Below, piece by piece: positions 51 through 44,248 of a DNA stretch of 48,117 nucleotides (the first letter of the stretch is position 1; each line of letters begins with the position of its first letter). Origin of the DNA: Dimargaris cristalligena (taxonomy: Eukaryota); contig ML002282.1 of NCBI GenBank assembly GCA_003614675.1, forward strand, positions 1-48,117. The letters run 5' to 3'. A program made the translations under genes and the position numbers. Below the pieces are notes generated by a model. That model was not told the DNA's origin, did not search any database, and worked only from the letters and a program-made list of their open reading frames with translations.

Positions 51-3000
51 TTAGTGTGGCTTATAGGGGGACAGTACACCTTGCCACACCGGTCCCTGAT
101 GTTCGTGGACAATAAGGTTAACCTTGGGAAGAATCCGACAAGTCAGAATGCCCCGGGTCGAGTAGAACGAGCACCGCAAAGCGTCGGTCCTATTTAAAAG
201 TCCGTCAATGATGAGCTGTATAGTCGATGTCGACAGGTGCGTCGACGAGGTGATAATTGCTTGATGGTAAAAATGAATGACAAACTCGCCCATTCGACCT
301 AGGGATCAAATACAATGTTGCCGGTCGGAGATGGGTAGAGTACGTACATGAAGCACTGGTAACTCGACTGCCTCAGGGGCATTGAGGAGAGATTTTATCG
401 TCACCCCTGATTGCCTTTGGTTCACAATGACGTGAGCCAAAGCGTGGACATCAGGGAACTTGACCAGTTCGCCCAATGTTAGGGTCACATGGTATTTTTG
501 ACCAATGCAGTACTGGAGTTGCTCCAACTGGGCCAGTGAAGCCGCAGCTGTGGAATGTAGCGGCTGAGGCAAGTTCAATAAATACTGTTCAGGAGAGACA
601 AGTAATTCATTCACGACCACAGCTAACCACCATTCAGTGAAGGGTAGTGATTGGGTGGACTGAGGGGGAGGGACACTGAGGAAGGCTTGGGCAAACTGAC
701 TCAGTTGATGTGGCTGATCAATCTTGTCAACCAGGTGAGGGAATTGGTGAATGGAGATGTAGGTGTGGGGAATTAGGGTTGTTGGAACAGTGGGCGGGAG
801 CATGGCGGTTCGTAATAGCGCCAAATCATCGTCGGAAGAATTAGCCACTAGGACCACCAATCGATCGTTGGGCAGTAGCAGGGCTTTAGTAGATCGCGCT
901 CCAGCTTGGATAAGGGCTTGCTCCACAGTACCGAGGTGGACATGCTGGCCCCAGACCGTTACTCGCTGATCGGCGGAACCCAGAATACGAATGGAACCAT
1001 CGACATCCCGATAAGCGAGGATTGGGCGACTAAAGGGAATGGGTGTAGGGTTATTATGAGAGTTGGAGAAGTCCAGGCGGCCGATAACATCAGGTGGGCA
1101 GGGATGGTTGCGGCTATCCCGCACGGTCAGGGCGTAGTCACCTAGACGTTTGTCGATTTTGGGCAGACATAAAGTTACCAGCTGCTCACGAGATACTATA
1201 CAGTGACCATGAAAAATGGTTCCCTGGAAGACAATGAACCTGATAGAATCCTGCATTAATTGGAATGAACTGTGTCGAGCCCCGCTGGCCAGATTATGAA
1301 TAACCAGCTGCTCCCCCTCCCATGAGTCCAGAGGAACATTGTCAGCAAAGATGGCGCAGTGGTAGGATGACGCCGTTTCCGCCGAGGCGGAAGCGCAGGA
1401 TGTCGATATGGTGACATGAGAGACTAGACAGGCGAGAGTTAACCAAACGAATTCGGGACTGTTCAGGGCCAGCGATGAGCCAATCACACAACACCCCTTC
1501 CCACTAAAGTAAGAACCTGTTGACGAAAGAGCGCGGCCGATGGATGAATGGTTAACGGTAGAAAGAACAGGCCCTGTAGGGCACCATCCAGAATTGAAAG
1601 TCAGTGCAAAGTTATCCCTGTTTGCGGATAGAGTAGGCTGGGTGATGCACAAGGCACCATCCGTCAAACTCTCGGTTGGACTTGGAATATCAACTGTATG
1701 AATTCCGTTGGGCAGATGGGACGAAACGGCTTCAGCCTGGTCTGACGGTAGCCAAAGAGTACGGGAATCAGTCACTTTGACACAAGCTACTAGTTGGTCA
1801 ATGGATTTATCCATCGGCATTAATAGCAGCTGGGCTCCCAGTTTAATTCCCGCCAATAAGGATATCATTAGACTATCAGGACCGTCCACCAAAGCCACAA
1901 TCGATGACGAATCCGGGCTGGTCATCCCGGTAGTCTGGCAGGCCAAAGAATCGGCCAGCATGTTGACCTCATGATATAAAAGGGTGCATTCACGGAAAAT
2001 GAGCGCAGGACCATTTGAATGTTCCTGTACAACCTCGTCCCATTGCTGAGCTAGAGAAAACTGAGATAATGGTTCGCCATGATCGACCAATGAGCCGGGG
2101 GGTGTGGTGACTAGGGCTAGAGTATCGATATTAGTCTGTAGCCCGGCGGATAGAATCTGGGTGATGACAGCCTGGACCATACCGACTAAATGGACGATGG
2201 TGCTTTCGGAATAAGCTTCTTGGCTGTAGAAAGTACCAATTTCAGTGCCAATGAGTTTCTCAATAAACCCAATGGAAAGAGGATACTCAGTGAATTCATG
2301 AATTCGCACTTCGGAAACGACAAGCTTATGGGCCGGGTCGGGCGGCACTTCCGGGAAGTTCTCGAACCCTAGTAGGGTATGGAAGAGTGGACCGGCACGA
2401 CCGGCAGGACTTTGGTGCACACTTTCGGTGAGAACAGTATGTTCAAAAGGAATCATCCGCACCTGGGCCTGATGGAGGGACTGAAGCCAGGGGCCGAGAA
2501 GTGCTGAGTGGAGACCCACGCGGAACGGTAACGTATTCGTGCAGGGCCCTAACACTTCGTTCATAGCTGGCAGATCCAAGTTACGCCCCGAAACAGTAAC
2601 CCCAAATACTACGTCATCCTGATCAAGTAGGCGGCCCAAAACAATGGCATAAGCAGCCTGGAATAGAGTGGCTAAGGTTATACCCAGTTGCTGAGTAAAT
2701 GATTTTAAGACGCTCCGGGAAATTTCCAGTTGGGTTGAATAGGTCGCGAACCCCGGGGAACCCACGTAATTGGGGGAGAGAAGCGGGGCCGGCGTGACTG
2801 GCGCATCCAGCAGGTAGTCGGCCCAAAAAGCTTTGGCCGGAATCGGGTCTAATTTGTGCACGTGATCCACCACAGCCGAGAAGCCGGTTAGGGGAGCCGG
2901 TACCAGCATAGCAGGGTGGTGATAGGCCAATTTCCACTGCTGGAGTAGCAGAGGCAGTGACCAGCCATCAATAAGCGAGTGGTGGATAGTGACTATAACC

Positions 3001-6000
3001 TGGTGGGCCAAGCCATCGGCAGTGGGGAAGACGAAATTGCGAATCATTTGGTCGTGTAAATTAAACCCGCGCCGGCGGTTTGTAATGAAAAAGTCGTTAA
3101 GCGAGTCCAACGGTATATCAGTAATGGTCCAACTAGCTAGCGAGGAACGGAGTACAGCTTGGACAAAACCCTGGGACTGTTTAGCCGAGGATTCCATAAA
3201 CACTGTTCGCAATGGGGCATGTTGGTTAGCAACCCTATTCCAGGCGAATATCAAACGACCCGAATCCAGCGGGCCTGAAATGGTAACGGCCATTTGAATG
3301 AGGTACGATGAAGGGTCTTTTGATAAACTGGCCAGTAACCCGCCCTGAACCGCAATACAAGGCAAGAGATCATCCAGTTGCGTTAGAGGGATGTGTCGGA
3401 TATTTAGTTCCTTAACGATGACTTTGAATTCGGTGTCTGTGAGGGCCAGTTGGGGGAAATCATATTGGGTGACTATGGGCTCAATGGTCATTGAAGGTGA
3501 CGACTGTTTGGCAGTATTGGCGAGCTGAACCAAGTTGTGTCGCCAGCCCGTCATCATTTGGGAGATTACGTCACTGTGGTATACACGAGGATTGAACTCC
3601 ATAATCAATCGTAAACAGTCCCCGACCAGAGTGGGCATGGGGTTAATGTCGAATATGACATGGTCATTGGGGGCAAAGTCATGTAAGCCAAACAAATCGG
3701 ACCATTCAATTGTAACGAGGTCCTCACTTTGGCCATGGCCGGTATGGCCGAATCGGCCAAAGTAATTGAACTGAACGTCCATGCGGGCGGGTGTCTTGGC
3801 CTCGAGTTTGGCCCGTTCTTCGGCCGGAACGCTGGACATGTACTTGAGTAACCCGTACGGGAACCCTTTGGCTGGGATTTGCTGCAGGGCCACTTTGGTG
3901 TGTCGTAGTAGGTCGAGGACGGATTGGCCCGGTTGCACTCGGAGGACTAGGGGGTACAAGGCAGTGAACCAACCTATAGTACGAGTAATATCTTGATCCG
4001 GCAGCCAAGGCTCCCCGGCCGTGACATTCCATACAGAGGGAAACATAAGATAGACCCACGCTGTTGGCAAAGGTGTGGGCAAAGGTAGCTAAGAGTACGT
4101 CCCGAGGAGATACCCGCCACTGAGGGGCCAATTGGAAAAGCAAGGTGCTGGTAAACTCCGCTTCAAAGTCGAATGACGTTGATAGCCGGGCTGCTAGAAC
4201 TCCGGGACTGCTCAGTTGGGGTGGGGGCAGTAGCATGTGTAACTCGGGCATCGTTACTGCAGAGTCTACTTGGTTGGGCCAAATGTCGGCCGATAAGCCG
4301 GATGCATAGTCAACCAACTGATTCGACCAAGCCTGGAAGGATAGGGTATTGAGATCTTCGATTAACACTCGCCAGGCCACAAGGTCCACTAGAGAATGGT
4401 GGATGGTGATAAATAGCCGCGTGTCAGCCGATTCGGTGGGGTCGTGAATCAAGGCCGCCGCCAGGATGGGCCCGGCTGCAAGGTTCAAACTCGCCTGAAT
4501 TTGCAAAATAAAATCAGGGTAGTCCTCTGCAGCTACTGCCGCTTCCTGAACCACAAAGTCATCGGGTAAGGCCGCGGTGGTCGGAATGGTCTGGATCCAG
4601 TCCTGCCCAGATGCACCGGGTTGGATCCGCGCCCGTAAGATGTCGTGGTGGTTGGCCAGAGCAACCAAGACCTCGATAAGGATTGCTACGGGCAGGGCCG
4701 ATGCCTGCTTTACCTTGAGCGTAAACGATTGGTTGAAATGATGGGGGTTCTGCAGGGGCGCTTTCATGAACCAGTGCTGGACGGGTGTCAGAGGCACTTC
4801 GCCGAGAATTTGTCGCTGATGAGTCTCATTAATATTCAAGCAGGTTCTTTGAGCGTAATGGGCCAATTGGCCGAGTTCGGGGTACTGGTATATTAAGGGA
4901 ACGGTTAATCGAAAACCGAGTTGTTGGCCCTTGGACACCAAAAGAATGGCCGAAATCGAATCCCCTCCGATACGGAAAAAATGATCAGTGGTGCTTATGC
5001 TATTGGGGTCCATCTGAAGGACCTGGGCCCAGGCGTGGCGGAGGTCGTGCTCACTTTCGGATAGGGATGCTGCACTGTCATTGCTGGTATTATCAGCCAT
5101 AATCGATTGGCGCAGCAGGTGATCAATAGGTGGCAGGGACTTGCGGTCTAGTTTACCATTGATGGTGCTCTGGAAGTTGACCACCGGCACAATCAGTTGG
5201 GGGACCATCTGCTTAGATAAATGGCTAATTAAAAAGAGGCGTAGGGCGCTGTGGTCCAAGTCGGCCGGGCTGGCGTACAAACATAAGGTGTCCTGGACCA
5301 CGGCTGCGACGCAATGCTGAAGACCGGTGAAGCGACTGGCCACGTTCTCGACCTCTTCGAGTTCGATGCGATATCCGCGCAGTTTGACCTGGTTGTCAAT
5401 GCGACCTAGGAATTCGATGGTACCATTCGGGGTCCAACGAACATAGTCACCGGTCCGGTATACCCGCCCAGGCCCATAGGGATTGGGGATGAACTTGGCT
5501 TCCGTCAGTTCGGGAAGGTTTTGGTAGCCCCGAGCCACGCCAATGCCGCCGATGAGGAGCTCACCAGGAGCGCCAACCGGTACCAACCGGAGTTGGCTAT
5601 CAACCACTAAATCGAAACTGTTGCGAATAGGGGGTCCAATTGTAATAACGTCCTCCGAACCAATCTTGATAACGTTGCTATAGATTGTTGTTTCGGTAGG
5701 ACCATAAATGTTGGCGATAGTGCAATGACCTTCCCACTTGGCCTGAAACTCCAACGAGAACGGCTCTCCTCCAATGATGATAGTGCTCATATTGGGCAAT
5801 TCGGCGGGATCCAGGCGAGTGGCGAATGAGGGGATTAATAAACTAACGTCGGCCAATTTTAGGTCAGAGAGTATGTCAGCCGTTGGGATCACCATAGTCC
5901 CGCCACTACAGAGGATACGGACGGTATCTAGCAATATACCATCGAAGGCGACCGATAAAATCTGGATAGCCCGGTGGTCAGGGCCGTACATCTCCAGCAG

Positions 6001-7317
6001 GTAGGGCTCGGTTGCAATGTTGGCTAGACCACCATGCTCGACTAAAACGCCCTTGGGGCGCCCAGTGGTACCGGAAGTGTAGATGATGTAGGCCAAATGG
6101 TGAGATGACGAGGGATACGGCTCGAAATCAGACCAATGAGTGCTGTGGTATTGCCGGATAAAAGGGTCCACGGTCATAATGGGAACCTGGCTATCGCTAG
6201 GTACCTTTCCGAGGGCTGATTCAGTCACGATAACCATGGAAGCAGCGCTGTACTCCAAAATATATTGGATACGGTCGGCGGGATAGTCCGGGTCAATGGG
6301 CACATATGCCGCGCCGGATTTAAACACGGCCATAAAAGCGACGGTATAGGCAATTGTTTTGGGAATTAATAAGGCGAAGCGCGCCTCGGGTTGGGCGCCG
6401 TATTGCTCGACCAGGACGCGGGCAAGCGCAGAGCTAGTGCTATCCAACTGGCGATAGGTCCATTGGTCAGTACCGTGAACTAGTGCAGTATGATCCGGGT
6501 ACGTATGAGCGCAGTCGCTGAATAGTTGATGGATAGGCTTGCCAACGCCCTGAACGGGCGCATTCATCCGCGAAAACTCCATCAATCGAGCACGCTCTTT
6601 GCCACTGACCCAAGGAACATCGCTCAATAGAGTGGGTAGCGGGGACTGCAGTGCTTCGGCAACACCCCCCACCACAGTACCGAGTTGACTAATGAACTCC
6701 GCAATTCCTTCCGGTCGGTAATGCGTGCGGGAATATGTAGCAGTGATGGGCATACAGTAAGACGGTCCCTGGCAGCTAACAAGTACAAAAGCACCACTCT
6801 GGTTTAGAACATCCACGAACAGTGGGTGATGGCCATTAGCATCACCCATCCCGGCTGAAGTCGGGTTAACGCGTAGGAGGACTTCAGGCAGATTGGTTTC
6901 GGAATATTCTTCTTGAACACCAAGCACTCGATTGACTACCCCGGTTGAATCGAAATTTAATTCGCCAACCCAATTGTCCGGATTAATGCAAATACTCTCC
7001 GGTACTATAGAATGATGGAACTCGCGAGTGGTAGTTGTTTCAACAACATTGATACCGGTGAAGCCGAATGTAACGGCGTTTTCACGGGTATACCGACTGA
7101 GTATAATGGCCAGCGCCGTCTTGACCATCGTGATCGAAATAAGGCATTGGTCTGACTATGGGGGAACCCCGACGGGTTGGCCGAAATGGGTGGCGTAGCC
7201 CGGTTGGCTCACGCGGGGGGCACCTAAGGGCAGCCGCAGACTAGGCGAATGATGTCCGCTACGAACCGGAGGGTTGCGGCCCAAAATGGGGCGGGTTTGC
7301 TCCTGAGAATTGGCCAT
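51..7317 (-). pseudogene. Non-ribosomal peptide synthetase, disrupted: (C-fragment)-A-T-E-C-degenerate A-degenerate T-truncated C
   Basis: A-domain cores AYIIYTSGTTGRPKGV, NIYGPTE, YRTGD, GRIDNQVKLRGYRIELEEVE; T motif FFRIGGDSISA; E motifs PLTPVQHWF, HHSLVDLVAWRVL, ECHGR/EPW..DITRTIGWFT, FNYFG; C motif HHSLIDGWS. ATG 7317 is in frame with 7128 but interrupted by TAG at 7158-7156. An extra G (CCCC at 4013-4016 on +) separates ORFs 3724..7128 and 306..4082. TGA at 308-306 is in frame with ORF 51..293, which looks like a C-domain start (LPISDRQHCI*SLGRM..LLNRTDALRCSF). No introns needed. Confidence 0.9.
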
Positions 7318-11098: not shown

Positions 11099-14000
11099 AT
11101 GGAATTCACCGTTGCTGGGATTTGCCAAACCGTCGGAGAACTCTATAAGAGTTCAACCCCAGAAAGCCAACAACTCGCCAACCAGCGTTTACTCGACTTC
11201 CAAAAAACAGTAAGTAACCCCGAGTAATGAGGTTCCACTGAACCATCTGCATCGCAATCCCTATACCTCGACCCGCCCCCCTTTTTTGAGTGAGAATCGA
11301 GGGACTCGATTGAAAAACCGCGAATCTCTCATCGCAGGAAGGCAAGAGCTCCAGCCCGCTCTCTGTTGGGCATTTGGTAACCCTAGCCAGGTTAGCTCTT
11401 ATCTAATCGCTTTAAGCTATACAACCGTATTGAATTTTTACCCACCCATAGCCCCAGGCCTGGTCGATTGCCGATAACATCTTGAACAACTCGGCCATTA
11501 GCCCCGAAATCAAAATTTTTGCGGCCCAGACCCTTAGACAAAAGGTAGATTACGGCAACAATGCCATTTATTCATTTTGGACTATTATATTCCTTACCAT
11601 TGTATGTGGTTACGCTGGTTAGTCAGCTACCATTCCTCACCACATTGTTCGTTTTATTTGGAACCTCCGGCCCCCTTACCGAATGATATTCTGCTTCTCC
11701 CACTCTATACCTTGTCCATTAGATTACCTACGATTTGAGCGAACTAGACACCAATGCCCGCATTTCGCTTCGGGACTCTCTACTCAACCTGCTCAACACC
11801 TACTGCAATGGCCCAAAAGCAATTACCACTCAAGTTTGCCTATCGCTCGCGGGGTTGGCCCTGCAAGTAACCGAATGGGACAACGTGCTGAACCACATGA
11901 TCCAGCTGTTCGGGTCTAAATCCGAGTCCGTGGGTTGCCTCATCGAGTTCCTATCCGTCCTGCCGGATGAGATCAACAACAACGATCGCATTGTCATGGA
12001 CATGGAGGTTTACCGCGAACGGTCCAAGACCCTGCTGACGGACAATGCGCCCCTGGTCGTTGGGGCCCTGGGTCAGTATATGCAGCAGAGTGACCTCAAA
12101 GCAGATGTGCGTCGCAGTATTTTGGAGTGCTTCCGAAGCTGGCTCAAGTCGGGTGACATTACCGCCGAGTCCCTCGACCAAAGTCCGCTCATGGGTATGG
12201 CCTTCCAGTCCCTCCAGATTGACGACCTCTTCGAAACCGCGGTGGATGTCATCTGCTGCATAGTATTCGAATCCAAGGACAACTCGACTTCCACCCAGAC
12301 TATCGAACGGGAAATTTACCCGCGTCTCCTGGAGGTGCGCCAGCTGATGCAGGTCAAACGGTCCGAAATGGATGACGAAATGGCCCGTGGGTTCTGCCGA
12401 ATTTTCACCGAGGCCTGCGAGTCCTATTTGTATCTATTGACCCGCAATGCCCCCGTGTTTGAGCCCCTGCTGCAGGGTCTGCTCGAGTGCATGACGTACC
12501 CGGACCTCGAAATTGTGCCCATGACCTTCAATTTCTGGGACCAGCTGGCCGAATACCTTAACTTGCCCGGCCAGCGGGCGGTCAAACCCCACTACGGACC
12601 CCTGTTCGCCACTCTCGTCGATATCATAATGACCCATTTGCGTTATCCTTCCGAACAGGCGACTTGGACGGCTGAACAGCAAGACCAGTTCCGGTCCTTC
12701 CGGCACCAAATGGGCGATGTTCTTAAGGCGTGTGTGACCGTTATTGGTGACGAAGCGGCCCTGGCCCGGCCCTACCAGGTGCTCGAGGCCGCCGTACCCA
12801 ACCAGGGTGGTGCCCCAACCAGCAACGATGCCTGGCAGACTATCGAAGCGGCCCTCTTTACGCTCCGGGCCATGGGCGCCGAAATCCCGCGCGAGTCGGA
12901 TGGCTTTATGCCTAAAATTATGGCGCTACTCCCGCGCCTCCCCAGCCAGCCCAAGATCCGCTATGCAGCCACCCTGGTGATTAGCCGCTACACCTTTTGG
13001 ACCCACGCCCACCCTGACCTTATCCCTTTCCAGCTGGATTTTATCTGCAACGGCCTGAAGGATCCCGACGTCGCCGCGGCCGCTGCCATGGCCTTACGGT
13101 TCCTCTGCCGGGATTGTGCTGAATGGCTCTTCCAATTTCTACCCCAACTCCACCAACTCTACACCGCCCTGGTCCCTGTGGCTCATCACCAGGACGCCCG
13201 GGAATTGACCGAGGGTGTGGCCCACGTTGTCGCCTCCCTGCCGGCCGACCAAATCCTAGGGGGCCTACAGCCGTTTTGCGAACCCTTCCTAGTTCGCCTG
13301 GCCGCCCTGGCCGACCGTAACGGAGGACTTGACAACTCGGAACGCCAAGAATTGGGCTATATTCTCGAACGGGTCACTCTATTCTTCCGGATCGCGGGCG
13401 AAAAGGGTAACGGGGCCCCGCTGAATGACCTCCTTGGGCAGGTTTGGACCTATGTGCAAAAGGTTGCCACCGTTTACCACGCTGACAATCAGCTCTCCGA
13501 GATGATCTGCCAATTCATGCACTGCTGCGTCGGTCCTTTCGCGGCTTACTTTGTGTCCCAACTGGGTCCCCTCGCCGAACTGTTGGTCCACTGCTTCTCC
13601 AACTCGGGTCTAAGTTGCTACCTTTGGGTGGCCAAGAACTGCGTGCGACGCTATTCGCTGCCGGGCGACCAAATCCCGGTGCTCCTAAATTTATTGACGC
13701 ACCTTGGCCAGGCCTACTTTAATATGGCCAACAGCCGCAATTTGGCCGATGTCCCCGACGTGGTGGAGGATTTCAATTGCCTGCTGGTGGCCTGTCTGCA
13801 TGAATTCCCTAGCCGTATTTTCGAAAGCCCCTGGTTTGGCCCCCTGCTTGCCCTGCAAATCCCCCTCTTAGCTATTCAGGAACGGTACGCCCTGGGGGCT
13901 ATGTTCAAAATGCATTTGCTGTGTTTGGACCTGGCGGTGAATAACTTCCCTAACCCCCACGAGTCCCCATCGAACGCGCACCACCATCGTCACCAGGACA

Positions 14001-14365
14001 GCAACCACCTAACCGCGGCGGCGGTGAACCAGGTAGTGGCGGCGTACCGGAACAACGGCCCCGGTCTGACCCGGGCGCTCATGTCAGGTATCCTCGAACA
14101 ATTTAACCCGTCGTTCGTGGGCGATGCCGCTACCGCCCTGACTTATTTGTTTGAACTAATGCCCACCGAAGCGCCCGGCTGGCTGGCCGATATCATTTCG
14201 ACCGTCCCTGACCATGCGTACCCTGGGGCGTCGAAGCAATCCTTCTTGGCCGCCGTGACGAATATTGTGCAGAACCGAACGTGGGCCAATCTGCCCCGTC
14301 GTTTGCGCGACTTGTCGGCGTTTTACCGCCGTCGCAACCACTTGGGTGGTCTGGCGACTGAGTAG
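11099..14365 (+). CDS. MTR10: Importin-beta family nuclear import receptor Mtr10/transportin-SR (TNPO3-like); exons 11099-11209, 11452-11544, 11723-14365
   Basis: Spliced N-terminus MEFTVAGICQTVGELYKSSTPESQQLANQRLLDFQKT|PQAWSIAD..FAAQTLRQK|ITYDLSEL matches the IBN_N/Xpo1 region. Donors GTAAGT (11210) and GTAGAT (11545); acceptors at 11451 and 11722; both phase 0. Family motifs FRSFRHQMGDVLK, WQTIEAALFTLRAMG, IRYAATLVISRYTFW. Confidence 0.92.
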
Positions 14366-18374: not shown

Positions 18375-18989
18375 GTAAGCACTACGTTCCTGCATACCAT
18401 CCACCCCACCACCAACGAGAGAATAGCAGCCCGTAAGAGCGATTCCAGACTCCACCCTCTAGTGCAAACCAAGAAGCGGGTCCCGATACCCATCCATCCA
18501 TCCGTCCGTCGAACACCCATTACGCCCCGGACAATTTGTCAAAATGAAACCGATCTTCACGACCACGTCCTCTCCCACGATCGCCAAGTTATGAAACCAT
18601 CCATCCGAGCGTTCGCTACCTTAAACACCCACTTGACGGTTGGGACGCATCCGTGAATCTTCGACAATGCTCTCTATTTGACTGAATGGATGCACGAACA
18701 AACGGTCCGCTCTGATGCTGGCGAGAAGGAGAAGGGAGGTCAAAACGACGGACCGGTCACGGTTCATAATCTGCGCAACTTGGAGATTCTATCCCAACCT
18801 CGATCGGGAGCCTGCCGAATCTTACATCGTCTCAATACCACTCTCGAGATGGAGCCGGGCTGCACCTAATCCTCCCTCATCGCCTTCCCCATATGAGATC
18901 CCACCTGCCAATCCCCCTTGTAACTCATCCGTATTCCTCTTTCTCTTACCCATTGCCTCTATTAATCACATAACTCCCAATTTCTGCAG
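18375..18989 (+). other. 5'UTR intron of RPS16 (615 nt) with a nested stem-loop element
   Basis: GAG|GTAAGC donor at 18375; pyrimidine tract and TTCTGCAG acceptor at 18989, 25 nt before the ATG; pyrimidine-rich (TOP-like) putative start region near 18307. Confidence 0.7.
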
Positions 18990-19014
18990 GTACGATATCA
19001 TACCATTTCGAACT

Positions 19015-19437
19015 ATGCAGGCTGTGCAAACTTTCGGACGTAAGAAGAACGCCCTGGCCGTTGCCCATTGCAAGGCCGGTAAGGGTCTGATCAAGGTCAA
19101 CGGTTCCCCCATCAACCTGGTGGAGCCCGAGATCCTCCGCTTCAAGGTGTACGAGCCCATCCTGGTGCTCGGCGAGGACAAGTTCGCCCACGTCGATATC
19201 CGCGTGTCCGTCCGCGGTGGTGGTCACGTCTCCCAGGTCTACGCCATCCGCCAGGCTATCGCCAAGGCCATCGTGTCGTACTACCAGAAGTTCGTCGACG
19301 AAGTCTCCAAGAAGGAGATCAAGGATACTCTCGTCGCTTACGACCGGACCCTCCTCGTCGCCGATCCCCGTCGCACTGAACCCAAGAAGTTCGGTGGTCC
19401 AGGTGCCCGCTCGCGTTTCCAGAAGTCTTACCGTTAA
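19015..19437 (+). CDS. RPS16: 40S ribosomal protein S16 (uS9), 140 aa
   Basis: [30 protein letters not shown]...[17 protein letters not shown]...[31 protein letters not shown]; strong C-ending codon bias. True start is ATG 19015, not 18715. Confidence 0.98.
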
Positions 19438-20252: not shown

Positions 20253-23200
20253 TCAGTTAGATCCCCCCGTTGATTTTAACACATTGGTGAGGAGCCGATT
20301 AGTGACATCCCGCACCGCCGTATCGACCCACAGGTCGGAATAGGGTAGCCAGGTACGTGATTCATCCAAAAGCATCGGGTCACCACCACGCTCCACCGTT
20401 GCATCGGATCTGGCCACAATTTGCATGCTGACCTCCGGATTATCCGGTGGGGGAAACCGGAAATTAGGGCCACTGTTAACAACCACGGCACCGCCCCGAT
20501 AGACTGACACCATCGGGTAATATCCGGGGCGGGCGGCATCCCAGTACTCGGCTAATACGGCACTTGTACTGGTGGAAGGGAACGTGTTGGCGTTGGTGTT
20601 GGTATGGTTATGGATAGGAGTAGGGGTAGAGGTTGAAGGAGATATACCAGACGATGCAGGGGACGGGGGTTCATCCTTGCGCTGGGCGGGGCTGGGTTTC
20701 ATGGCTATAGGTACGGCAAATGCCATGTCACTGCCATTGGATTTGGTCGTTGGTTTAGCGCCTACTCGGGAATTCTCGGAAAAGAAGGTTGGGGCAGGTG
20801 ATGGTAACGGCGAGTCCGCCAGGGGAGTCCCGGAAGTCGGCAGGGTGGTTGGTGATGGTTTAGTTGGTTGGGGACGGGCGCCGCCCGCGGCCTTGGCACT
20901 CCCTGCCGCTGGTCCCCTTTTCCGGGGGGCTCCCCCACTCCCTCCACCCGATGGTAATTTGGTGGGTGAAGCCAGGCCCATTCCTACCATACCGTTCCAG
21001 TCCGAGCCACCTGTCGGAGTACCTGCGGGGAAGGTCCCCCCTGGTCCGGGGGTCCGATTATGGGCCGGTGGAAGGGAGGGTAGCCAAGAATGGAGTTGAC
21101 CAAATGCTACGCCGAGGCACTTGCCATTTTTGTAAACGATGATCTTGGAGCCCGGTAAAAGGGACTGGGTGCTGATGGTAGGGGTGGCGGCGGCGGCCGA
21201 GGACTTGCCCCGTGTGGAATGGTGGGAACCGAAGCCCCCTCCTCCGGCCGGAATGGTCGAGAGGGGGGATGATACCCCACCACCGGGGGGTTTATGACTA
21301 TGTTTACCCCGCCCCGGCCCGGATTTCCGGATCGGCTCGGTATACGGGCAACATGGAGAAGGAGGGTGGGGAAGGGGAGTGTGCCATGCGGAACCGAACG
21401 CCAGCGGACCCGGTCGGGTATCAGAGCTCACATCCCCCGTGCGCAAATAGGATTGGCCCTGAATGGTGACCATGGCGGGCCGGATGCCCTCGTTAAGGAT
21501 GGGGGGCCGCTCACTGTTGTAGAGGCGCCCCTGGAGCGCGGCCTGTTGGCGGCGGGTAGCAAACTCATCGAATTCGGGCAGTCGGGGAATAGAAATAAGC
21601 AGGCCTATCGTATCACCCGTCCGAAACGTGGCGTTAAAAGGGAGACGTTTCCCGTTGTGTAAGGTGTCCCCGGATTCATCGCGGATTCCGTATCCGAATT
21701 TATCGCAGCCGACCGGTCCGTCCAGGGTGGCTGTTTAGTTAGGGGGAACATGGATTACAACAAGCAGCGATGCATAGTGGATGAGGGCCGTTAGGCATGG
21801 TGGGTTATCGGTTACTAATTCATAAGAAATCGATATACCTTCATAACATACTAAATGGATAATAACCCAGTAAGAATCAGTTGTTTTTAAATATGGGAGA
21901 AGTTCATTCAGGCTGTATAGTGAAAAATCCGTTGGATGAGGCCAATATTACTGGCTGAAAATGAACCACCCACTCATTGTCTCGTACACTTGTCATTTAA
22001 ATCCCTATACAGCTGAGTCGAATATCACCCATATATACGCAGAGGATGAATCGAAGCTGCAGTGGGACTGAGGCTTACCTTGGGGAAGTCCGAACCCGAG
22101 GCGGACGTGCGGCAATCCCTGGCCAGGCTGGGCCGCGGTAATAAAATACTCGATAAAATATTGGCCATCCGTTATGGGGTACACGCCCCGGATGCTACGA
22201 AACCCGCCCGTAGTAGTGACGCGAGTACCTCCCTCAGTAACCTTTAGGTTGGGATTGCGATCCTGGTAACTCAGAGCCCGCGATCGTAACTGGGGCTGAT
22301 CCGACGTCGTCGGTCCGGTGGAGGGGTAATAGTAATTAAGCAGGGAACCCGGTGGGGGGCATCCCGTCTTCCAGCTGTTTCCTGGTGTAGGTAGGGCACA
22401 ACAACAGGGAGTATACACCAGGCCGGGTTCATTGACGGCATCTAGTGGGGGGTCAACGTAATGAACTGTACGCTTAGGTGAATGGATAGCAAGGGTAGAA
22501 AAATAGGAGCTTCCCGTACCGTTGGTGGTACTTGGTTTTTCGGCGCGTGGCGCTTTCTTCGGATTGGCTCGGCTAGGTTCTACTTTGACCTCGATGGGGG
22601 GAAAGTTAGCGGCCGGGGAAGTGACCGAGGTTGCCGACGTTGGACAACCCGAGGCCGTACCCGAGACCGGGACGACTAGACCAAAGGGAGACTCGCCGAT
22701 GGTCTGAGCGAACCGCTTGGCAAAGGATAGACTCTTATTCTGGGCCTTGGCGTTGGGTGCGATCGGAACGGTGGTACCGGCTTTTTCCGCATCCCCGGCT
22801 CCCGCTCCAGCTCCAGCTCCAACTCCAGTTCCTGGCCCGGCCAGTAATTCCTCCTCGACCACTGCTGGGTCCGTGGAAGAATCTAGGGGGCGCTTCTTAG
22901 TTTTAGAGGAGTGTTTGGCTCGGTTACTGTCTTTGGGCTTTGCGGCACTTGGGGTAGTCGACAGAGCGGTGGGTCCCGCTGACCGATGGGGGCGCGGGGG
23001 GATCGCACCAGGGCGGAAATTCCATAAATTGACGTCCATTAAGCGAAAATCCGAGGCCGCTGTTCGGCGACCGCCATCTTTGGTGATAAATACATTGTTG
23101 ACGGTATACAGACAGGAGCCTAGCGTAGCCCACCAGGTGGTAGTACGGGACCGGAACGTGCAGAGGGCCTTCCAATTCGCATCCACAAAGGGTACGATGT

Positions 23201-24251
23201 CCTGTTTGTTGAAATAGCATTCGGGCAGGGGGTGGGTCTCCATCTGGGCGGAATATAGGTGGTCGGGGTCCCAATGGTTCCGCAGGTAATTAAGAGTCAG
23301 GTTAGCGATGGTGGTGGCACAAATGTCCTTCCAGCCGGCCGAGGTGCGCTGGTACTCCTCCTCCACTTCCAAGAATAAATCAAGAGGAGGAGCGGGTTCG
23401 GGTGGTTCAACTACCGGGGGTGGAGGGGCTGGCTCGGATATTGTCATTCGATTAACATTAGGTGGGCTGATTTCCTTTAGGGGGGCGGGTGATTCCACCA
23501 AAGGAGGAGTTGGGGCTTTTGCGGCCTCTGAATCGGGAGCGGAGGAGGGTGGTTGTGGTTGTGGTACACTTTCGGTGGGGCAGGTTGGGACATCTAGAGT
23601 GGGGAGCTCGGGGATATCATCGATATTCGAATCATCCCTAAGGGATGGGTCAAGCTCGGGAGACGATAGGTCTGAGGAATCGTCCGACGAAGCCATGGAC
23701 AAATCACTGAGGGAACTGGTGGATAGGGGCGAGCTGGTGGGATATGCTGCTAGACCGATAGACTTGGGGGGCGATGGGGGGGCAGTCGGTGGCGGGCTTG
23801 ACTTGATGGGTATATCAGTCAAGATTGCCGGACTTTCCGTGTCACCCGTGGGGGGAGGCGCTGGGGAAGCCTGTAATACAGTCGCTGCCGGTGGCGACGG
23901 CAACGACGGCAGCGGGGGAGTGGGCGGCATAGGTTCAGGTGGGGTGATTTCACTTCGACTTCCAGGGGGCGCTACTGGCGGTACGGCAAGACGTGGCGAA
24001 TGAGGATGGGCTGCTCGCCAAACACAACGGCGGCATTTGAGTTGGTAATTGGTCACGAGCGGGACGATGGGGCCCAGAGGAACGCGTAGGCAGCGCTCAT
24101 GGAACCAATTGAGGCATTGGTGGCATTGCAAACAGACATCGAGAATACTTCGGTCTTCGCCACAGTAACAATATTGGTGTTCGGCGTTGGTGGTATGGGC
24201 TTCATTCCAAGTGAGGCTATCAGGGTCATAGGGCGGCGGATCGGCAGACAT
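20253..24251 (-). CDS. ASH2: Set1/COMPASS subunit Ash2 (PHD - winged helix - SPRY); exons 24251-22079 and 21730-20253
   Basis: N-terminal PHD YCYCG..CLQCHQCLNWFHERCL..CRRC; winged helix (WKDICATTIANL..FVDANW..TTWWATLGSCL); SPRY (GFRSIRG..HVRLGFG|ATLDGPVGCDKFGYGIRD..GSKIIVYKNG..YYPMVSVYRGG..NSGPNFRFPP). Phase-1 intron 22078-21731 (GTAAGC..CTAAC..CAG) joins the two ORFs in frame. Confidence 0.92.
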
Positions 24252-25008: not shown

Positions 25009-25564
25009 ATGAGCCTTAACGAACAGCAGGGTATGATTTCCCCGGAAGCCAGAGCGAGCTTAGATGAAGGAACTTCTTTTTTCCCTCGTCTTTGACGGTT
25101 AAGTAGATATACCGACAACCTAAACTGACCAGGAGGGGTGAGAGGATATTATATGCAACCCTATCCAATTCATTACCCGTACCTATGTTTGTCTAACTAT
25201 TCCTTGTCCTTGACGTGTGTCCCTCTAACATCACTCTTGCTGACTTTCGATTTCCACAGATAATGACGACCAGTCGTACATTCGGCTAGTGAGCAACGAC
25301 GGTTTCGTGATGCATATACACAAATCGGTCGCCAAGGGTTCGGGGGCGGTCCGCAACCTTCTGGCCAGCTCCGGGCAGTTTATGGAGTCCAAGACCAACG
25401 AGTTCGCGTTCCGGGATATCCGCGGGCCGATCCTCGAGAAGGTGTGCCAGTACCTGTACTATAAGCACAAGTACGACCAGACCTGGACGGATGTTCCCGA
25501 ATTCCCCATTGAGCCTGAGATTGCGCTGGAGCTGCTTATGACAGCGGATTTCCTGGATGCCTAG
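25009..25564 (+). CDS. ELC1: Elongin C; exons 25009-25030 and 25260-25564
   Basis: MSLNEQQ|DNDDQSYIRLVSNDGF..SGAVRNLL..GQFMES..ILEKVCQYLYYK..VPEFPIEPEIALELLMTADFLDA; phase-1 intron GTATGA(25031)..CTGAC..CACAG(25259). Confidence 0.95.
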
Positions 25565-26134
25565 GAAGTGAGGGGGGGGAGTCCTGCTGCGCATCTTGGA
25601 GATCAACAGGCCTTACTTTCCTCATACTTGCCACCCCAGTTAAAACGATAAATCACGTGTATTTTCCCCGATCTCTTTAGGGATTTTTTTGTACCGCCTG
25701 GGGTTTTTTTATTGGTAGCTGACTTAAAAAAATCGGGACTGTCAAATTACCATTATTACATATTATATAGTGCGCTACTACTGATGCATGGGCTGAACTG
25801 AAATCCGTATACACCTCAACAACACCCCAATTTTTTTCTACGAATGAGCTTGTCTCGTCTCGATAGTTGCATTCCCATTAAACGAGACGAATTATACACA
25901 CCCACCGCCCACACTAGCTGTGTAAGCGTATAGTGGAGTAGAGTAGAGTATAGCAGAAAAGGAGAGTGATTCGTCCACTCACATTGCAAGCGAGTGTAGT
26001 CGAGGGGGCCACTTTATTGAGGCGAATCCCCCTCCCCGAAGCCAAAACTGGACCTAGTAATCCTTTTCCGCTCTAAAACATCGACGGCTCCCCCCCCACC
26101 CACTCTATATGCAAAAAACCCCCTCACCGCCACC

Positions 26135-26737
26135 ATGAACCACTGGAAGCTGAGCACTATAATTTTAGTAGTGGCCATTGGTCTATACGCCGTTGCCTCT
26201 TGGTTCTCTTTGCCTCTTTCCTCGCCTCCCTCCGATCTCTCCCCAACCCCACCCCCCGTCTTCCCCCCCTTCCCTCCCAACCCAGTCACTATGGAACGTA
26301 CTTACATCATGGTCAAGCCCGACGGTGTCGAGCGCGGTCTTGTGGGTGAGATCATCAAGCGGTTCGAACAGAAGGGTTACCAGCTGTTGGCCCTCCAGCT
26401 CATGACCCCTTCCCAGCAGCTCCTGGAGGAACACTACGGCGATCTGGCCGGCAAACCCTTCTTCCCCAAGCTCATCAAGTACATGCTGTCCGGCCCCGTG
26501 GTCGGTATGGTCTGGGCCGGTAAGCAGGTCGTCAAGACCGGTCGCGTCATGCTCGGTGCCACCAACCCCCTCGACTCCGCCCCCGGTACCATCCGCGGTG
26601 ACTTCTGTGTCGATGTCGGTAAGAACCTGTGCCACGGTTCCGACGCTGTCGAGAGCGCCGAGAAGGAAATCGCCCTGTGGTTCCCCAACGGTGTTGCTTC
26701 CTACAAGCGTACCGTCGAGTCCCTCATCTACGAGTAA
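26135..26737 (+). CDS. NDK1: Nucleoside diphosphate kinase (group I); core from ATG 26291, with an in-frame 52-aa hydrophobic/Pro-rich extension from ATG 26135
   Basis: [55 protein letters not shown] (catalytic His)..EIALWF. Upstream ATG is in GCCACCATG context. Confidence 0.95.
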
Positions 26738-42927: not shown

Positions 42928-44248
42928 ATGGCTGCATTCTCCCCCATCCATACGTTTGCCTCGAATACCGATTCGTCTCTTTCTTCGTACTACCCCGGCT
43001 TCGTATCTGCGCCTACCGACCTGGTTGCTAAACCGTCCACGATATCATATTTGTCACCCGGTTTCATTCCCATGAACCCGCCGACCCCCTCCACAAGCTA
43101 CGACCGCCCGCAACAACATCATCAGCAGCAACCCCTGCTGTCGAGCCCGGCAAGCACTCCCCTCCCCACCGTCCACCCCCATTTCGTCCTCCGCCGCTAG
43201 TCCACACGGGCCATCGCCCGTGCCGGATCAAGACGGCGGCAGTGGCACGCCGTCGGCCACTGGCGCTTCATCGACCAACCCAGCTGAGGCCGAAGCTCCC
43301 AACCCGAACGCCAAGCCCACGCTATCGTACGCCAGTCTTATTATGAAGGCCATCTTCAGCAGCCCGGCCCGGAAACTGACCCTCAACTCCATTTACCTAT
43401 GGGTGCAGGACAGTTATCCTTACTTTAAAACGGCGCCCAGTGGTTGGAAAAACTCCATCCGCCACAACCTTTCCCTGAACAAGGCCTTCCACCGGGTACC
43501 CCGCGATATCAACGAGCCGGGTAAGGGCGCTTACTGGACTATTGATATGAATTACGTCGATGAGTCGATGCGGCCCAAGAGCCGGTTCGGCCGGTCCACG
43601 AGCGATCCGCATCCCTATTTTGGCATGCCCTACCGGAATCCCATGAATGACTACATGCGTGGTACCGCTGCCCCCCACTACGTGACCCACCACCCCCACC
43701 ATAGTCCCCATCATCACGGTCACCCGCATGCGGCCCATCCGGGTTTCGCGACCGCCGCCGGAGTGGTGACCGCCAACAATCCCGCGATGGACATGTCGAA
43801 TATGTACTCCCCGTACATGCGGATCAACTCGGCGAATACCTCCCCGACGTACGGAGCCAACATGATGATAGCCTCGGCCACGGCCGCCGCCGCTGCTGCT
43901 AGTCCGCATGTGGCGTCACCCATTTCACATACCCACTCCCACTGGGCCGTCCAGAACCGGGCGACCATGGGATCGTTCCACCATTCCATGGTGAGCCCCT
44001 ACAGCAGTCCCAGTTTCCCCAGCTCCACCCAACATTATCTCCAAAATCCCACCATGAGTCCGCCCACCACCCACTCGGCCGCGGTGGCCGCGGCTTCATC
44101 CATAGCGGCTGTCTCGGCCGCCTCCATGGGCCACCACGACCCCATGTCCGATCCCCAGGTTCACCACTATGACCAGGGGCACACTCACAATCCCCATCAC
44201 CCGTTTTCATCCAACATGATGCCCAAAAATGACTACTCGGAGCAATAG
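42928..44248 (+). CDS. Forkhead (winged-helix) transcription factor without FHA domain; N-terminal part lies in a different frame (+1 break near 43140-43200)
   Basis: [65 protein letters not shown] followed by a His/Ala/Ser-rich tail. The FH frame has no ATG upstream of the domain (TGA at 43073). ATG 42928 opens a Ser/Pro/Gln-rich frame that ends at TAG 43198-43200. Confidence 0.9.

Follow-up and report, generated by a model that had tools for sequence, protein, structure and literature searches.

A single ndk1 gene was found in the window (the whole stretch of 48,117 nucleotides of Dimargaris cristalligena DNA that was analysed), and we put at about one half the probability that it gives rise, from two transcripts, to an abundant cytosolic NDK of 148 amino acids (aa) and a minor 200-aa form that is anchored in the ER with its kinase facing the lumen. 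On the sequence comparisons described below, it is very probable that the long form is made.

Reading frame and domain layout

The open reading frame at 26135–26737 on the forward strand encodes 200 aa, in which a 52-aa extension precedes an intact group I NDK. ATG 26135, found in the context ACCGCCACC-ATG-A, is linked by 52 stop-free codons to an inner ATG at 26291, and the same frame continues until the stop ending at 26737, confirming the original prediction of an NDK with an in-frame signal-peptide or anchor extension. The frame of ATG 26135 is open upstream as far as 26021. A sequence scan showed this frame to be free of ATGs from 26021 up to 26135, and the stretch separating the starts at 26135 and 26291 to lack them in all frames. 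The features are listed below.

26106..26110, forward strand: TATAT, candidate core-promoter word for the long transcript (pattern scan, consensus match only)
26126..26138, forward strand: upstream start codon ATG 26135 in a strong context (context score ranking)
26135..26149, forward strand: short positively charged N-terminal tail, residues 1–5 (sequence; N-side charge +2.5, with the amine counted and His as half)
26150..26212, forward strand: hydrophobic helix, residues 6–26, signal anchor or signal peptide (KD12 2.97, KD19 2.15, structure model)
26158..26162, forward strand: TATAA within the extension, candidate core-promoter word for the short transcript (pattern scan, consensus match only)
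26189..26197, forward strand: possible A-X-A cleavage site, residues 19–21 (judged by eye)
26201..26290, forward strand: C/T-rich, G-poor leader ahead of the inner ATG, overlapping the linker codons (leader score)
26213..26290, forward strand: Pro/Ser-rich linker, residues 27–52 (12 Pro, no Lys/Arg; pLDDT <50)
26291..26737, forward strand: group I NDK catalytic domain, 148 aa, from the inner ATG (PF00334, E 1.8e-53)
26633..26635, forward strand: catalytic His (active-site position check)

A hydrophobic core of about 17 aa had been predicted for the extension. The core itself was recovered, but its uncharged stretch is longer, with 21 residues (L6–L26) and Trp at both ends. This is a membrane-spanning length, and the predicted structure has a single helix at residues 3–24 (pLDDT about 77–89) followed by a disordered linker at residues 26–51 (pLDDT <50). 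The 26-residue linker leading to the domain is proline-rich and lacks Lys and Arg. None of the 28 residues downstream of the helix is basic, and the complete 52-residue extension includes 0 Arg and 1 Lys, which is not the Arg-rich amphipathic character of a mitochondrial presequence. An n/h/c layout with A19-V20-A21 as the A-X-A, both judged by eye, would be compatible with a cleaved signal peptide. No N-glycosylation sequon was found in the sequence scan. An intron is unlikely here, as 26001–26300 includes no CTRAY-type branch word and no donor-like word follows 25922. A second copy of the extension was not found in a search of the genome, and an Atlas search with residues 1–60 returned no usable match.

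The kinase core aligned to solved NDKs and matched PF00334 with 180.5 bits (cut-off 27). All 11 positions checked, which were assigned by comparison with human NME1, are intact (K61, Y101, F109, R137, T143, R154, N164, H167, S169, D170 and E178). The core shares 93% identity with Ndk1 of Dispira simplex and 85% with that of Dimargaris xerosporica. Five NDK matches were found in the genome, namely this gene, L002 and three distant ones at 22–32% identity, and the only close group I matches are this gene and the mitochondrial-type L002 (L002:1246–1968; G000:C1503). Like the mitochondrial NDKs (L002, NME4 and plant NDPK3), the long form is a group I NDK with an N-terminal targeting extension. In L002, however, the presequence is rich in Arg and Ser, a hydrophobic stretch resembling that of intermembrane-space enzymes follows later, and there is no inner Met. 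In a 53-row tree, the window NDK grouped with Dispira simplex Ndk1 (99/86), a placement that identifies its core as the cytosolic type and not the mitochondrial paralog, and L002 lay apart on a long branch. As L002, the sole other close group I match, has no inner Met, the gene in the window is the most likely source of the cytosolic enzyme. The mitochondrial intermembrane space, named in the original prediction as a location of some group I NDKs, is unlikely for the long form because the genome carries a separate presequence-bearing NDK in L002.

Elsewhere in the window, an apparently intron-containing Elongin C/Skp1-POZ-like gene (about 25010–25564, forward strand) lies ahead of the NDK on the same strand, with 570 bases between its end and the NDK start. 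Genes for a Transportin-3-like protein (11897–14365, forward), ribosomal S9 (18715–19437, forward), an ASH2-like protein (22005–24251, reverse) and a forkhead protein (43343–44248, forward) are ordinary neighbours. An NRPS with AMP-binding, carrier and condensation domains (306–7128, reverse) is split into two overlapping frames, and the frame changes around position 4015, where a short run of G lies within a condensation domain. No intron-like pattern was found there, and the split is either a sequencing slip or a broken gene.

Start codons, leader and chance

The extension is unlikely to have arisen by chance. Its best 12-residue Kyte-Doolittle mean (KD12) is 2.97, and only 1 of 5000 dinucleotide shuffles was both open and as hydrophobic (1319 stayed open). 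In control frames drawn from 848 kb of the Dimargaris genome (<3% of the total), 212 off-frame anchors upstream of genes gave 16 open ATG frames of 25–100 codons, none of which reached 2.5, and of the 1313 ATG frames that lie outside long ORFs and span at least 52 codons, 32 attained a value of 2.5 and 7 one of 2.97. Some of the hydrophobic frames in the set of 1313 are probably real short genes. One control match, in L162 (reverse strand, near 4118 in reverse-strand coordinates), is a real-looking signal-peptide first exon before a long ORF, and because it holds some true genes the control set is if anything conservative. Among 113 genes, 13 others have signal-like N-termini, and the extension surpasses all of these (2.0–2.8) in hydrophobicity. 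A genome-wide scan could still yield a few chance cases, at roughly 7.5% x 0.5% per gene, and comparison across species therefore matters.

Both ATGs look selected, which indirectly supports the predicted production of two isoforms from alternative starts. Only 6 of 18,213 non-coding ATGs have a context as good as that of ATG 26135, which outscores all 70 presumed gene starts (here and for the leader, each is the ATG that comes first in a long ORF). Once promoter composition was cancelled out, its score was equalled by 5 of the 308 upstream ATGs and by 2 of the 69 presumed starts. The leader score of the inner ATG was matched by 2 of the 18,213 non-coding ATGs and by none of the 70 gene starts, and the 100 bases upstream of it are more leader-like than those at any of these starts, with a C fraction of 0.56 against a gene maximum of 0.47. 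Such a leader is typical of a strongly expressed gene. Codon bias was 0.49 in the core (GC3 0.80), 0.16 in the linker and 0.00 in the helix, where codon use is at background level; the bias begins at the inner ATG. Given the codon bias of the core, the gene-like leader at the inner ATG and the finding of no other cytosolic-type NDK, most of the product is probably the short form.

It is decidedly unlikely that the extension is never translated and serves only as promoter and 5' leader for a highly expressed gene, its open frame and hydrophobicity having arisen by chance. The leader-like composition, the TATAA inside the extension, the absence of codon bias from the helix, the short annotation of Ndk1 in the closest relatives and the few chance cases expected per genome are consistent with this explanation. 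However, the shuffle and control-frame results, the top-ranked context of ATG 26135 and the recurrence of the layout in models from six other lineages and in the reported FgNdk1 argue for translation, and the hydrophobic part has a pyrimidine fraction of about 0.55–0.60. A pyrimidine-rich promoter or UTR, named in the original prediction as the alternative to a coding extension, probably does exist at 26201–26290, where the DNA would serve both purposes, but the hydrophobic part is not pyrimidine-rich. As the linkers of six other extended forms have 1–3 Pro each, the Pro richness of the linker in the window may, at least in part, be a consequence of the high C content of the leader.

The chance that only the long anchored form is made, with the inner Met a relic, is close to negligible. 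The context of ATG 26135 is stronger than that of the inner ATG, and the FgNdk1 paper treats the long form as the product (PMC12641451). However, codon bias starts at the inner ATG, whose leader ranks first in gene-like character, the 5 genome matches offer no alternative cytosolic NDK, and an inner Met is retained in all 7 extended forms. As the first ATG is strong, two transcription starts are likelier than leaky scanning.

Extended Ndk1 forms in other species

The comparison covered 97 other rows, found mainly by their core, and included 84 short, 4 partial and 2 fused forms and 7 with a Met-started extension of at least 20 aa. Extensions of at least 25 aa were present in 6 of the 97 rows and are 39–53 aa in length. 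These belong to Smittium megazygosporum, S. simulii, Cladochytrium replicatum, Hyaloraphidium curvatum, Synchytrium endobioticum and Amoeboaphelidium protococcarum, and all share a hydrophobic helix, a linker and an inner Met. A KD12 of 2.5, a cut-off set after inspection of the data, was reached by 6 of 6 extended models and by 0 of 16 control frames, all from one genome (Fisher 1.3e-5), and AT-rich genomes would give more chance matches than the control genome. A Linnemannia model (P0078; 23 aa, KD12 2.45) fell below the 25-aa cut and was left out of the count.

The extensions of the two Smittium species, the cores of which are 84% identical, aligned without gaps over 34 residues (score 77; 0 of 1000 shuffles as good), which suggests selection on the peptide. 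The window extension did not align to any of the six others beyond shuffles (11 to 832 of 1000 as good), and its weak match to P0236 (score 44; 16 of 1000 shuffles as high) is of low-complexity Pro/Ser sequence. P0236 is an ascomycete-type Ndk1 from the representative search with a basic tail, a helix, a Ser/Pro stem and an inner Met, and mostly ascomycete long-form clusters with 103 and 65 members were found in the Atlas. Ndk1 of the nearest relatives (Dispira simplex, Dimargaris and Tieghemiomyces) is annotated in the short form, with lengths for Dispira and Dimargaris compared at the level of 90% clusters. The four partial models and the Dikarya-type P0238 have non-hydrophobic upstream frames.

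Two near-identical Ndk1 models of Cladochytrium replicatum, P0050 and P0058, were found, one with the extension and one without, a hint that annotation rather than biology may decide which form is listed.

In the 53-row tree, 6 of the 7 extended forms were located inside a supported set of 15 rows. Despite this, a 98-row tree (7 non-fungal or fused rows dropped and 2 skipped for motif mismatch) had no starred set containing the window, and the idea of a distinct extended subfamily was set aside. The extended forms are scattered on both trees, a pattern that would be compatible with either a common origin or repeated gain. A profile search with the 7 extended forms found no further extended fungal model among the 120 matches listed.

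The 80 metagenome loci derive mostly from algae and other protists (54–74% identity), and the plastid-type signals at these NDK loci were set aside as a different feature. One metagenome Ndk1 is preceded by a Met-started, T-rich hydrophobic frame of 33 codons (L006:1216–1314), which may be a UTR and was not counted. A signal-like helix is also present in a group of animal-like or unassigned NDKs (P0165, P0175, P0181, P0189, P0205, P0206, P0230, P0133, P0253 and P0297), most with an inner Met and often with Cys in the linker, and the arrangement of helix, linker and inner Met may extend beyond fungi.

Proposed membrane location, orientation and significance

The closest known case is FgNdk1 of Fusarium graminearum, which has an 84-aa N-terminus with a predicted TM helix at 31–50 and 10 prolines. 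GFP-FgNdk1 was reported to overlap an ER marker in part, and the overlap was abolished when the N-terminus was removed (PMC12641451). Both proteins are group I fungal Ndk1 in which an N-terminal hydrophobic helix is followed by a proline-rich linker (12 Pro in the window) and the kinase. They differ in extension length (84 versus 52 aa) and helix position (31–50 versus 6–26), and an ER location demonstrated in Fusarium is only predicted for the window. The window feature appears to have the sequence-level traits of the ER-anchored kind, and it is this part of the original proposal of a membrane-bound or organellar form that the likeness to FgNdk1 would support. The FgNdk1-type N-terminus was found in 7 plant-pathogenic ascomycetes among 17 species and was unreported in other fungi according to the authors; their species list includes no early-diverging fungi, and the words isoform and lumen have 0 occurrences in the main text (PMC12641451). 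A literature search, which covered few subscription papers, found no paper describing an extension of this kind among early-diverging fungi, nor any describing a dual start for a fungal ndk1. Dual-start fungal aminoacyl-tRNA synthetases likewise have a targeting sequence between two in-frame AUGs, but their first AUG is weak and their signal mitochondrial, whereas the first AUG in the window is strong; the same authors reported that a signal peptide with a second start was not enriched (PMC7049704). Further literature cited is PMC13120501, PMC2978717, PMC10713741, PMC9037145, PMC4585086 and PMC11323498.

The two transcripts and the translation of the long form are inferred as follows. A downstream transcription start at about 26160–26280 would yield the abundant 148-aa cytosolic NDK, and a weaker upstream start that takes in ATG 26135 would yield the 200-aa form. 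By analogy with FgNdk1, the hydrophobic helix would direct this form to the ER and remain as an uncleaved type II anchor, leaving five residues in the cytosol and the Pro/Ser stalk and kinase on the ER/Golgi lumen side. Under the charge rule, a negative difference between the charge after and before a helix places the N-terminus in the cytosol and the C-terminal part in the lumen. The kinase is predicted to be lumenal because this difference is -3.5 in the window; it is negative in all 7 extended forms and in P0236 (by another boundary rule, in 6 of 7, with one zero). The retention of N-terminal GFP-FgNdk1 at the ER would fit an uncleaved anchor in the type II orientation. A lumenal kinase could, speculatively, exchange phosphate between lumenal ATP and the GDP and UDP freed by glycosyltransferases and thereby aid secretion.

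An anchored long form with its kinase facing the cytosol, on the ER, mitochondrial or peroxisomal surface, and supplying GTP to membrane GTPases as NME3 does, is very unlikely. Vertebrate NME3 (NDPK-C) has an N-terminal helix of 17 residues that attaches it to the outer mitochondrial membrane (PMC10432850, PMC7662248), and insect NDK models have a 15-aa hydrophobic extension and an inner Met; in all of these a group I NDK is tied to a membrane by its N-terminus. A cytosolic kinase would also account for the secretion defect reported for FgNdk1 without lumenal nucleotides. However, the NME3 helix is short, amphipathic and directly adjoins the domain, with basic residues after it, whereas the window has a longer, uniformly hydrophobic helix within a 52-aa extension, a 26-aa linker lacking basic residues and a reversed charge bias. 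The difference of -3.5 is opposite in sign to that of the insect type (+1, +1, +1 and 0 in four forms).

Cleavage of the helix as a signal peptide after A21, releasing a soluble NDK with a Pro-rich stub to interconvert nucleotides on the surface of the hyphae or at the interface with the host, is unlikely. The A-X-A at 19–21 would permit cleavage and secretion, small residues also end several homologous extensions (by eye), and there are precedents for NDKs on the secretory route, such as the gall midge NDPK reported to be secreted into rice (PMC8602583) and Waddlia WcNdk2, which has a signal peptide (PMC13318545). These, together with plant type IV NDPK, are separate paralogs or group II enzymes, not isoforms of a cytosolic gene. 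Against this explanation, the uncharged stretch extends as far as L26 and has a Trp at each end, the helix exceeds the other signal-like N-termini of this genome in hydrophobicity, and FgNdk1 remains at the ER (PMC12641451). Some of the species with an extended form are also free-living.

The original prediction had tied an ecto-NDK to parasitism, a connection that is not supported, as the same layout is present in the free-living Cladochytrium replicatum and Hyaloraphidium curvatum.

The occurrence of an FgNdk1-like layout in a Dimargaritales fungus and in six other early-diverging models widens the range of an anchor that had been described as limited to seven plant pathogens (PMC12641451) across the kingdom, and weakens the case for a purely pathogenic role. 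A possible but doubtful extension of this argument is that an Ndk1 isoform of the secretory pathway, whose transcript begins at a second start and whose kinase lies on the ER/Golgi lumen side, is old and widespread in fungi (aphelids, chytrids, Zoopagomycota and ascomycetes) and mostly missed by gene models, rather than the specialty of a few pathogens. If the dual-start and lumen-facing readings are true, the interpretation of ndk1 deletion phenotypes would change, as a deletion removes both forms, and a widespread lumenal NDK isoform would point to a lumenal reaction, so far unrecognised, in which nucleoside diphosphates are phosphorylated again.
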